NCBI GenBank assembly: GCA_965199495.1 | Contig: CBDASK010000003.1 | Span: forward strand, 3,680,001-3,744,000 | From: Abditibacterium sp. | GTDB lineage: Bacteria; Armatimonadota; Abditibacteriia; Abditibacteriales; Abditibacteriaceae | Direction of reading: 5' to 3' | DNA: 64,000 nt | Shown: in pieces, positions 42,001 to 45,000 of the stretch | Layout of the letters: each line of letters opens with the position of its first letter | How positions within the stretch are numbered: position 1 is the stretch's first letter | Program-made: the position numbers

Positions 42001-45000
42001 TCGCCTAAACTAACCCCGTGAATTTATCGCTCTTTGCCGATGATGCAGCCACGCCGCCTGTATCGCCGCTAAATCTGCCCAAACATCTGCTCGACATCAA
42101 TACGATTTATCACGAGCCGAACGTTTTCGAGTTCGCGCGCGGCAGAGAAATCCGCGCGTGTTTTCCCGACTCCAATCTCATCGAAGTGCCTTCGCACTGG
42201 CAAATTCCCGAACTTCATGGCGACGCCGCAAACGATGCCGATTGGCTCGGCATCAAGCGCGAAACTTTGGTTCTGGGCGTGCGCAAGGCGATGAAAATGG
42301 AAGCCAACACGCGTTCGAGCGATTGGATCGCGCCCGCCGTGGCTAACGGTTGCGCCAGCGCGTGCGCGTATTGCGTGGCGGCGGGTACGCTTATTTCGAC
42401 GCCACAAGGCCAAGTTCCCGTCGAGCAAATCGAGGATGAAGCCGAAGTAATCGCTTTCGATAGTTCTTCGGGACAACTCGCAACAGCTCGCGTTTGCGGG
42501 TTGGCTTCGCGGGAAGTAAGCGAAGTTCTCGAAATTGATCTTGGCGACCGAGTGCTTCGTGTAACGGCAGAGCATCCGCTTTGGACGCGTAGAGGCTGGG
42601 TAAAAGCCGGAGATCTAACTCCAGACGATGAAGTTCTGTGTGATGAAAGCAGCACAGAGTAATGCCGTTTTCGACATCGCACTTGTCATCGGGGAAGAGC
42701 GCGACAGGCAAAACGTGATGCGCTTGCAACTGCGTTTCGCTTCCGCAAATGCGGCAACAGCCGTCTCTCTCCAAAACGGCTCGCGCCCATTCTTTGCCAC
42801 TGCGCCGTTGTCGAAAGCCGCTTTGACTGCGTCCGTTGACATAATTGGGATTGCCCGCGCCACAATGCCGCTTCGCTATAATCGCCGCTTGAGCGCGCCG
42901 TCCCGCTCCGGCGCGCGAACACTGCGGGCAATAGCCGTAGCGGTTTTCATTGGTTTTGAACGGGGCGTCACACACGCGGCACCCCTGCCACTTGATAGTT
43001 GAGCGAGCAATGGTTCGGTCAATGGCAAACAAAACGCCTTCCCATCGGCGAACAGTGCGCGCATCGCGGCCCAGATAAAGCGCGGCCTGCCCGTAAGAAG
43101 CCACAACTTTGAACGGCATTGCTTCCATATTTGCTAAGTGTTGGCGGCACGTCGCGCAGCAAAACGCTTGAGGCGTCCGCTTGCCACACCAACCGCACGC
43201 CAGCGTGCCATTTGTCTGTCTCATGTTGAAATTCCGAAAAATTCAATCCATCCGCCGCGTGAGCGAACCACAAACCGTTTACAACTTTCATGTCCCCGGC
43301 CCGCAGTCGTATCTGGCCAATGGAATTGTAACCCATAACTGTTATGTCGCTCGTCGCAAAGGCCATGCTAACCCGATTACGACGTTCGTCAACATCGAAC
43401 AAATGACGAAATATCTGGCGCGTCACGCGATGCGTCAGGGCGAAAAAAGGGCAGCCACGCCCGCCGACGACAAATTATGGGTTTACGAAATTGGCTGCAA
43501 CTCCGACACTTCGATTGATGCGGCGATTTCGGATAACGTGCGCGATTTTGTCGAACTGTTTAGGACGTTGCCCAACGCCAAAGGCACTTTCGCCACCAAG
43601 TGGGTCAACCGCGCGATGTTCGATTACGACCCGCAACGCAAAACGCGCGTAAGGTTTTCCCTCATGCCCCAGCGCATGGCGAAGTTAGTTGACGTTCGCA
43701 CTTCGCCAATTAGCGAGCGCATCGCGGCGATGAACGATTTTTACGAAGCGGGCTACGAAGTCAATGTCAACTTTTCGCCGGTCGTCATCGAAGACGGTTG
43801 GTTGGAGGCTTACGACGAACTGTGGGACGAAATGAACGACGTTTTGCGGCCCGAAGTGAAAGCCGATTTGGTGGCCGAAGTGATTTTCCTGACGCATCAC
43901 GCCGGTTTGCACGAAGTCAATTTGCAGTGGCATCCGCGCGCCGAAGCCGTCTTGTGGCAACCCGCAATGCAGGAGCGCAAAATCTCGCAGGGCGGCGGTA
44001 TCAACGTGCGTTACAAAGTGAGTTTGAAGCAGCCTTTGGTCGCGCAGTTCGTGGCGCGAATGCGCGCTAAGTTGCCGGAGTGTCGCGTGCGTTACGCGTT
44101 TTGAGCGGGTTTATTCGCCATGACTTCGACTGCGCGCGGCACGATTTCAAATGTCATCGGCGCCGTGCCGATTAACTCGCCATCCACCAAAATTGGCCAA
44201 TTGCGGTCACACCACAGTTCCACTTTGCGAGCGCGACGCATAACCACGCGCGGATGATGAACGTGCGCGCCCCGAAACACGCCGGGGAAAGCGCGCGCAA
44301 ATTCCATTTTGCTTGCGTCTTGAATCACGCAAATATCGAATAATCCGTCATCTAACTGCGCGTCGGGCGCGACTTGCATTCCGCCGCCATACGATTTCGC
44401 GTTCGCCACGGCACATAAAAGCGCGCACGTATCGAGCAGTTCGCCATCCAATCTCAGGCGCAGGCGCGCGGGACGCAGACGTTGCAGTTCGAGTGTCGCC
44501 GCCGCCAGATATGCAGCCACGCCGCTGATGTGTTTCCAAACCGGATGCGTGCGCCCGGCGTTGATGCGGCGCGCGACGAGGGAATCGAAGCCGCAACCGG
44601 CGATGTTGAGGAACAATCGCGATTGCTCGCCGTGTTGACCGTAAGTCGCGCGCCCGATGTCAATGGTTCGGCTGTGCCCGCCAAATAAAATCTGAATCGC
44701 GCTGTCTAAGTCGTTGCCAATTCCCAGCGTGCGAGCGAAGTCGTTGCCGGTGCCCAACGGCAAAACGCCCAATTTGGTCTTTGTTCCATGAACCGCGTTC
44801 AAGACCTCGCCCATCGTTCCGTCGCCGCCCGCCGCCGCCACGATGTCGGCGCCGTGGCTGATAGCGACGCGCGCCAACGCGCGCACCTCGGACGGCGATT
44901 TAGTTTCGATGATTTCAAACGCCAAATCGCCCGCGTATCGCGCGATTTGTTCGTGCAATGCGGCGCGCGACACGCGACCACGTCCGGCGGCGGGATTGAA

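Follow-up and report, generated by a model that had tools for sequence, protein, structure and literature searches.

An antisense HNH endonuclease gene overlaps a split intein in a radical SAM gene of Abditibacterium: a candidate mobile cassette of bacteria and phages

Gene organization and host enzyme

The locus described here lies in the genome of an Abditibacterium sp., within a stretch of 64,000 nucleotides of contig CBDASK010000003.1 that was analysed as a whole and is referred to below as the window. As the initial annotation had claimed, a gene for a radical SAM enzyme of the TIGR03886 (spore-photoproduct-lyase, SPL) family is broken there inside its CxxxCxY/C motif and each part carries a piece of an intein. 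The N-half ORF (42018-42662, forward strand, stop at 42660-42662) encodes an N-extein of 118 aa (42018..42371), whose terminus CASACAY holds the first two Fe-S cysteines, and an N-terminal intein part (IntN) of 96 aa plus stop (42372..42662). The C-half ORF (43223-44104, forward strand) starts with the ATG at 43223 and encodes a C-terminal intein part (IntC) of 39 aa (43223..43339), ending in His-Asn (THN), and a C-extein of 254 aa (43340..44104) whose first residue, Cys+1, is the third Fe-S cysteine; the N-terminal and the C-terminal intein model both find a match. The gene of a 277-aa HNH endonuclease runs on the opposite strand (42391..43224, reverse), recognised by domain matches, homologs, predicted structure and purifying selection in its own frame. 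It shares 272 nt with IntN (42391..42662), the forward strand encoding the intein part and the reverse strand nuclease residues ~188-277. Its start codon (reverse strand) and that of the C half (forward strand) stand head to head in a CATG (43222..43225); in relatives the two starts are close, with no common CATG. Annotation pipelines overlook the nuclease ORF and label the N half 'Hint domain protein', and gene callers skip the antisense ORF in most cases.

Positions 1-94 of the TIGR03886 model match the N half (126.6 bits) and positions 83-346 the C half (399.1 bits), and an intein-free allele of a congener, with exteins 87-89% identical, scores 544 against a cut-off of 437.55. The designation 'SplB-like' given earlier should be replaced by membership of TIGR03886; to the true SplB equivalog TIGR04070 the halves score 37.1 and 67.3 versus 400 bits; the Rv2578c family model NF038136 gives 16.4 bits with the N half. 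An alignment to Geobacillus SPL by way of P0070, an intein-free protein 93% identical, covers its CxxxCxxC motif, both tyrosines and the fourth cysteine and places two Fe-S ligands in the N half and the third at the +1 residue; residues aligned with Y98 and C140 are retained in the C-extein. The roles of these residues are treated in a review (PMC3742179). We regard the host as a putative UV-repair enzyme. No intact TIGR03886 copy exists in the genome, where the sole other relative is a 22%-identical paralog.

A frameshifted cis intein with a nuclease on the sense strand was rejected, there being no corresponding ORF, and a link to the upstream transposase was rejected, this transposase having REP-like repeats of its own and the cassette being single-copy. 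No clear ribosome-binding site was seen by eye upstream of the C half, promoter-like sites stood at chance level in a promoter scan (2 seen versus 1.1 +/- 1.1), Rfam gave no match, and no holder was listed among the RNA data sets.

The split intein

Class 1 inteins are marked by Cys1, a block B TxxH, a His-Asn end and Cys, Ser or Thr at +1, and the two intein parts show this complete set, with TAEH as block B and Cys at +1. Residues C1, T65 and H68 of IntN and H38 and N39 of IntC are invariant in 14/14 aligned alleles. IntN is acidic (7 K/R versus 19 D/E) and IntC basic (5 K/R versus 1 D/E), and in 12/12 split alleles having both halves the former is net negative and the latter net positive; in 12/12 split alleles the C-half start codon lies 38-39 codons ahead of Cys+1. 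An earlier count of about 60 database proteins joining SPL to IntN and ending alike was borne out by 67 such proteins among 120 listed of 193 matches, 60 of them with an IntN of exactly 96 aa. The IntN profile matches solved HINT and intein chains, and relatives of IntN with 42-44% identity occur in unrelated phage genes; IntN matches 56 phage records in all, at up to 44%. A model of the IntN-IntC complex reached 0.69 versus 0.01 for the best control, a mark attained by 116/157 solved and 2/215 mismatched pairs, with at least 98% of contacts shared between runs and partner pLDDT of at least 81; such a pass denotes likeness to solved inteins and may be memory of them.

Very probably the two halves are joined by trans-splicing: translated apart, they would associate through IntN and IntC and splice. 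Because the +1 nucleophile is itself the third cysteine, the reaction would also restore the Fe-S site with all three of its cysteines. This would place a splicing step ahead of Fe-S cluster assembly in a putative UV-repair enzyme. The alternative is that the halves assemble without ligation and that the intein parts serve as a clamp or are only cleaved off. For this speak the Asn at the block F position of IntC, a position usually held by Asp, and a precedent, the intein-less fractured NrdA of phage Aeh1, cited in the accessible part of PMC2677866; we consider it very unlikely, the terminal splicing residues being all invariant and the gene being broken within the Fe-S motif, whose third ligand comes immediately after IntC.

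The antisense HNH endonuclease

The nuclease is built of a zinc finger, a NUMOD1-like helix-turn-helix, a second zinc finger, the HNH core and a helical tail of 75 aa. HNH_2 matches residues 157-199 with 21.8 bits, a bare pass of the cut-off of 21; among 30 aligned members HNH_2 was found in 28, NUMOD1 in 10 and NUMOD3 in 2 (E<=0.5). The antisense ORF proposed by the initial annotation has, as stated there, 12 close homologs, found among 24 matches out of 2070 candidates. C157, C160, H169, N186, C191, H194, H195 and H199 are invariant in 14 HNH proteins and presumably fill the roles of the beta-beta-alpha-metal motif, which is intact in this protein; modular DNA-binding parts are present too.

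The predicted structure has a mean pLDDT of 91 and a pTM of 0.60, with pLDDT of 93-98 in the tail. A Foldseek search against the PDB gave no match at E<=0.001, the top rows being HNH nucleases, and comparison with viral structures gave matches to 1e-6, mostly HNH; the best VIA match was a phage HNH protein (Z 6.5, rmsd 5.2, 84 residues aligned). Modelled alone, the tail reached a pLDDT of 57.6, too poor for a fold search on the isolated tail; in the whole-model searches no listed chain singled it out and its Atlas look-alikes peaked at 0.78, so that its fold stays unplaced. A tail-only profile retrieved 25 proteins from 1.84 billion representatives, by eye all HNH proteins with the tail or fragments of them, except one repeat artefact.

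Outside the overlap, identity among ten alleles at the three codon positions of the nuclease is 0.60/0.65/0.35 and 0.60/0.71/0.32, and pN lies far under pS in 5/5 pairs. Selection acts on both enzyme-intein halves as well, i.e. purifying selection is seen in all three frames. Damaged copies also occur, of the nuclease in L121, L126, L172 and L188 and, by a frameshift, of the C half in L113. The bare HNH_2 score and the neglect of the ORF by most gene callers could be taken to mean that the gene is dead or misassembled and the antisense ORF a shadow. Against this stand the purifying selection in three frames, the same layout in 14 distinct loci, and contigs of sequencing run X1, possibly the source sample, that cross both junctions as well as the IntN stop and show 0 differences. 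Such a reading is refuted to the extent that sequence allows, and we give it hardly any credence; on these data the locus is genuine and conserved, with both strands under selection.

Dual coding in the overlap

The overlap, going beyond what was noticed earlier, includes the final His-x-x-x-His helix of the nuclease (C191, H194, H195 and H199) together with the 75-aa tail; the IntN stop codon is the antisense of an NGIT motif and the intein DEVLC that of HTELH. Over 45 pairs of ten alleles, which are not independent, identity at four-fold sites is 921/1525 (0.60) in IntN, versus 314/977 in the N-extein, 137/486 in IntC and 657/1849 in the C-extein (28-36%); L114 and L121 were left out of the ten-allele counts because they are near-copies of L033. 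Two additional cyanobacterial split alleles gave 0.68 and 0.67 in IntN, and six Ktedonobacterial alleles with a contiguous (cis) intein 0.33-0.48, five of them with many antisense stops. In the cis allele L151 the antisense frame is open for ~80 codons with a sequence unrelated to the tail; an antisense frame can thus stay open by chance. GC3 of IntN in split alleles is 0.24-0.46, and that of the C-extein spans 0.30-0.93. In a recoding simulation 1.9-3.7 antisense stops were expected versus 0-1 seen in split alleles, the interval counted having taken in the ORF's own stop in several alleles.

The initial annotation had warned that conservation in the nuclease's C-terminal part might be partly forced by the overlap. 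The constraint at intein-synonymous sites contradicts this, as does the retention of the tail in the nuclease frame, despite stops in the intein frame, at three loci (L122, L127 and L148). In L122 and L127, whose copies are truncated at the 5' end and adjoin IS-like sequence, the intein frame is riddled with stops, and core and tail of the HNH protein can be read through without one; their tails share 0.61/0.68/0.40 identity by codon position with those of split alleles, and between the two pN is 0.20 and pS 0.56. By these comparisons the 272 nt are truly dual-coding, with selection on both strands.

The intein frame is the older one, because IntN matches solved inteins, HINT domains and phage genes, unlike the narrow tail profile, which finds only HNH proteins with the tail. 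Ten loci with unrelated inteins gave no match to the tail profile on their antisense strand, and the same holds for the phage relatives of IntN, although one of these reads RHTEPHH in the antisense frame. Weak matches of 18-21 bits, with stops, lie antisense to 4/5 Ktedonobacterial cis inteins; they may be inherited from the overlap or imposed by conservation of the intein, and no conclusion is drawn from them. At the HTELH place the antisense strand of the helicase intein of Vibrio phage K391 reads RHTEPHHYLLNLRLAP (one of three readings printed); an intein antisense strand can therefore supply a ready His-x-x-x-His.

Distribution and allelic states

The three-part layout was found in 14 distinct loci (the window, L031, L033, L113, L115-L120, L126, L188, L189 and the viral pair L176/L177) of Armatimonadota, cyanobacteria, Rubrobacteraceae and viral contigs, among them the IAD-21 genome and the Rubrobacter bin already named in the initial annotation; L119 and L123 have neighbours that look phage-like by eye. 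Among 12 metagenome loci, eight have the three parts, two lie at a contig edge, one has an IS30-like ORF in the nuclease and one is without intein. In the genus, 9/13 genomes carry the host gene, six of them intein-free, two split and one cis, in keeping with the claim that most congeners are intein-free; G084 (Abditibacteriota bacterium IAD-21) was placed in this genus and G179 is an uncultured Abditibacterium. Further away, the Rubrobacter family has a match in 20/104 genomes and the split intein in two, the cyanobacterial class IntN of the SPL intein in 2/401, and Ktedonobacteria a match in 12/151, six of them cis. The spread is thus patchy at one site, with empty alleles nearby.

The cassette, again going beyond the initial annotation, also reaches viral contigs and a second radical SAM family. 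On one 548-kb viral contig, the only case of this kind, an AmmeMemoRadiSam enzyme is split at the same motif position (TIGR04337 positions 7-86 and 84-284), the insert being made up of that same IntN, an antisense HNH gene that has the tail and a frameshift, two further ORFs and IntC. Several searches were negative: a single HNH query gave 86 stretches in genome contigs and the HNH alignment 32 in viral contigs, 0 confirmed in either; a phage-type C half and P0269 had no match in viral contigs, nor cassette DNA in plasmids. A degenerate motif scan of genome contigs gave 20 matches, 4 real and 16 by chance, the two Chlorogloeopsis matches being chance ones.

Relatives of the locus exist in intein-free, re-fused cis, decayed-nuclease, separated-halves and free-nuclease states. 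Cis mini-inteins at this site are real, occurring in at least 19 proteins (19 among 120 listed of 143 matches), but their reported presence in 8 of 12 loci was not reproduced: the 12 loci of our IntN scan comprise six SPL inteins (three split with HNH, one lone N half and two cis) and six unrelated inteins. On the IntN tree the cis state requires 9 changes, 3 of them forced by strong branches, and on the N-extein tree 8, with 5 so forced; cis monophyly is rejected (AU p 2.6e-82 for exteins, 3.9e-4 for IntN), on trees that are quick, unrooted and of 91-95 columns, the extein tree omitting P0090, P0092, P0102, P0111 and L032 (short or deleted N-extein). The nested cis alleles are best read as re-fusions, and a divergent clade of 12 cis members may be ancestral or consist of old re-fusions. 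The cis allele L132 retains a 91-aa open antisense tail with 0.61 four-fold identity, and L032 a tail with stops. Lichen run X3 contains three forms side by side, namely an intein-free junction (42371 to 43340), a clean in-frame cis fusion (42650 to 43226, separated by three letters and likewise present in X7) and a contig that bears the HNH gene; with contigs at 85% likeness, these forms belong to relatives and not to the window strain.

Intact halves with a broken nuclease are seen in L126. In one MAG (G201), on which the separated-halves state rests, the halves are intact and the nuclease is gone. The N half sits within a contig of 225 kb and has a decayed antisense tail, and the C half is present on two further contigs that are 99.3% alike and lack the nuclease; binning of two strains is a possible source of error. 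Free-standing nuclease copies occur in L122, L127 and L148. In G312 a divergent full-length HNH copy is located directly upstream of an intact gene that carries a cis mini-intein, and the opposite strand of this copy carries a decayed IntN (31%, with stops).

Mobility and origin of the cassette

Taken together, we are fairly confident that the locus represents a mobile cassette that occupies the CxxxCxY/C motif of a radical SAM gene and consists of a naturally split class-1 intein together with a homing endonuclease of the HNH type on the antisense strand. The nuclease read from the other strand would cut intein-free alleles near the insertion site, and repair would copy the 968-bp cassette. 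Such homing seems likely to us. One may instead suppose an improbable course in which the nuclease does not home at this site and hitch-hikes or serves in phage competition, being locked to the intein and retained for that reason, and ordinary gene transfer accounts for the spread of the cassette. This would fit the outcome of the one pair compared, where no co-conversion tract was seen against the syntenic intein-free allele of a congener, which is 85% identical in nucleotides to the window flanks and shows no drop in identity at the site; it would also fit the free-standing copies L122, L127 and L148 and the short HNH-plus-tail proteins of 140-175 aa without N-terminal DNA-binding modules. 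It does not sit well with selection on the non-overlapping nuclease modules, with invasion of the same codon in unrelated allele backgrounds that have close intein-free neighbours, with the occurrence of the cassette at this very motif in a second family of radical SAM enzymes, or with the free copy of G312 still adjoining the same host gene.

Regarding the origin, the course that we slightly prefer is that an HNH gene lacking a 3' end of its own became attached to a contiguous intein on its antisense strand. The DEVLC end of that intein, read there as H-T-E-x-H, would have completed the active site; because the frame ran on through the intein antisense strand to a stop near the intein start, a new tail would have been overprinted. 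Loss of the nuclease could subsequently have let the locus re-fuse to a cis mini-intein or the halves separate, or the nuclease could have been copied out with its tail. Alternatively, an in-frame HNH domain of a contiguous intein may have been flipped in place, splitting the intein and leaving no stop of its own, with present function unchanged. The head-to-head starts and the missing stop suit a flipped internal domain, a ThyX intein (L150) carries an in-frame HTH-NUMOD3-like-HNH domain with 34% identity over residues 116-200, and inversion is named as a route between orientations in the accessible text of Gosselin et al. (bioRxiv 10.1101/2025.01.02.630785). We hold this course to be possible though doubtful, given that no SPL allele among the listed proteins of 304-968 aa has an in-frame endonuclease, that free-standing phage HNH genes, which fill the Atlas matches, are equally similar (31-43% identity on the HNH core), and that the cassette ends lack inverted repeats. 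Insertion of a free-standing HNH gene is therefore favoured a little.

The fuller picture towards which we lean, by a modest degree, is that radical SAM genes of bacteria and phages are host to a self-locking mobile element. Its nuclease would owe the metal-binding helix and a 75-aa domain to overprinting on the antisense strand of the splicing domain. The new domain would have become needed in its own right and escaped to free nucleases, and the intein would have re-fused several times and, in one lineage, come apart as two genes far from each other. Should this overprinting reading be true, a DNA cutter and a protein splicer would be one and the same DNA stretch, and one family would display every step of split-intein evolution, in both directions, together with the birth of a protein domain. 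Few long antisense overlaps for which selection has been shown on both strands are known from bacteria. Since it is clear in this case which of the frames is older, the de novo birth of a folded domain can be studied. About 60 new natural IntN/IntC pairs are, moreover, candidate tools for protein ligation.

Comparison with known systems

In the accessible literature, natural split inteins on bacterial chromosomes are few, with DnaE as the main case, and the steps of their formation have been proposed from metagenome fragments; the model becomes testable here because the family holds the steps side by side, some of them in cultured IAD-21 (complete genome). The searched literature, in which subscription papers are thinly covered, yielded no combination of a split intein, an antisense overprinted HNH gene and a radical SAM host, no intein in a radical SAM CxxxCxxC motif, no overprinting of a homing endonuclease on an intein and, from 2012 on, no naturally split intein with HNH in metagenomes. 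Split inteins and radical SAM enzymes met only in peptide-engineering work as far as the sources could be consulted; in the accessible part of a Campylobacter phage paper, radical SAM genes and inteins are both mentioned, each on its own, and inteins in the SPL, SplB or Abditibacteri literature came down to Novikova et al. and one unrelated intein paper. The initial annotation pointed to one paper listing actinobacterial SplB inteins and missed the antisense endonucleases of Gosselin et al. Fractured genes and antisense endonucleases in contiguous inteins are already known, and the combination, the host and the overprinting appear new within the literature searched.

Novikova et al. (2016, PMC4760082), in the part available, list 48 actinobacterial 'SplB' (COG1533) inteins as well as archaeal inteins of MoaA-type radical SAM enzymes, and do not describe them as split there; the former probably belong to the Rv2578c family (NF038136). 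SplB itself (PDB 4FHC) has the CxxxCxxC motif, the two tyrosines and the fourth cysteine in common with our host enzyme but differs in family, the latter being TIGR03886 and not TIGR04070.

The fractured genes of Dassa et al. (2009, PMC2677866, accessible part) are the closest known arrangement, with an enzyme in two ORFs bearing split-intein parts in the original order, a free-standing endonuclease ORF between them, an acidic IntN, a basic IntC and a link to phages. In those loci, however, a single strand carries all ORFs, IntN being followed by 27-51 non-coding bases and IntC overlapped by 6-69 bp, in contrast to the 272-nt antisense overlap with IntN found here; their nucleases are GIY-YIG or Vsr-like and not HNH, and their hosts are gp41, IMPDH, DnaE, NrdA, NrdJ, ligase and terminase instead of radical SAM enzymes. 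According to their model, the nuclease would be lost and the halves would come to lie apart, and HNH nucleases could also fracture genes; a difference is that re-fusion to a mini-intein by deletion is seen here. Gosselin et al., who cite Gorbalenya (1998), describe in the available text contiguous inteins with LAGLIDADG and VSR-like nucleases encoded antisense, as a rule away from the splicing domain. Their endonucleases, like ours, lie opposite the intein strand and are overlooked by annotation, and apparently still home. In our locus, unlike theirs, the intein is split, the sense frame is not open across the nuclease (it stops at 42660-42662 and changes frame to the C half) and the nuclease overwrites the splicing domain itself.

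With the cyanobacterial DnaE split intein (PMC2677866 and PMC4760082, as far as accessible) our system shares a natural, chromosomal occurrence and, in G201, halves on separate contigs with unrelated neighbourhoods. In DnaE the nuclease is gone, whereas our single family contains this end state alongside the intermediate that still bears the nuclease.

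Neighbourhood of the split gene

The ORF of an IS200-like/RAYT-type tyrosine transposase lies beside the split radical SAM gene at positions 41449-41901 of the window, with 49-nt inverted-repeat pairs to either side of it, the whole arrangement occupying 41255-42007. BLAST retrieved 63 pieces of this 49-nt repeat in 24 clusters across the genome, and we therefore regard it as a REP-like family. The window also carries, on the minus strand, a 3304-aa ORF (31255-41169) that by eye resembles a cyclic beta-1,2-glucan synthase/cellobiose phosphorylase-type protein. Elsewhere in the same genome (contig C3, 1534439-1534516) there is a second intein-C-like stretch, with 50% identity to the IntC over 26 aa.

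Variants of the intein-bearing gene and of the endonuclease

The cis allele L032 of an uncultured Abditibacterium (G179:C167) lacks about 60 aa of its N-extein between two EPN stretches, reflecting either a natural deletion or an assembly collapse. Protein P0094 (163 aa) is a deletion derivative, the start of its IntN being followed immediately by the final residues of the enzyme. The N-extein is short (about 42-49 aa) in the phage-type SPL-family genes L119, L176/L177, P0090, P0092, P0102 and P0111. The neighbours of L119 include a dCMP-deaminase-like ORF as well as a UvdE-like UV endonuclease, both named by eye. HNH+tail proteins of 140-175 aa devoid of the N-terminal modules were also met (P0279, P0280, P0284, P0286, P0287 and P0013).

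Other inteins and apparent fractured genes

The ThyX thymidylate synthase at locus L150 (G282:C222) harbours a contiguous intein, within which a region with helix-turn-helix, NUMOD3-like and HNH parts is read in frame. In a viral terminase (L181, 75-3503) the intein N-part is joined to a GIY-YIG-like nuclease followed by a stop, the C half beginning in a separate ORF. A viral ribonucleotide reductase (L178-L180, 3014-6037) resembles a classic fractured gene of the same-strand kind, in the order N half with its IntN, stop, endonuclease-like ORF, and IntC with the C half.
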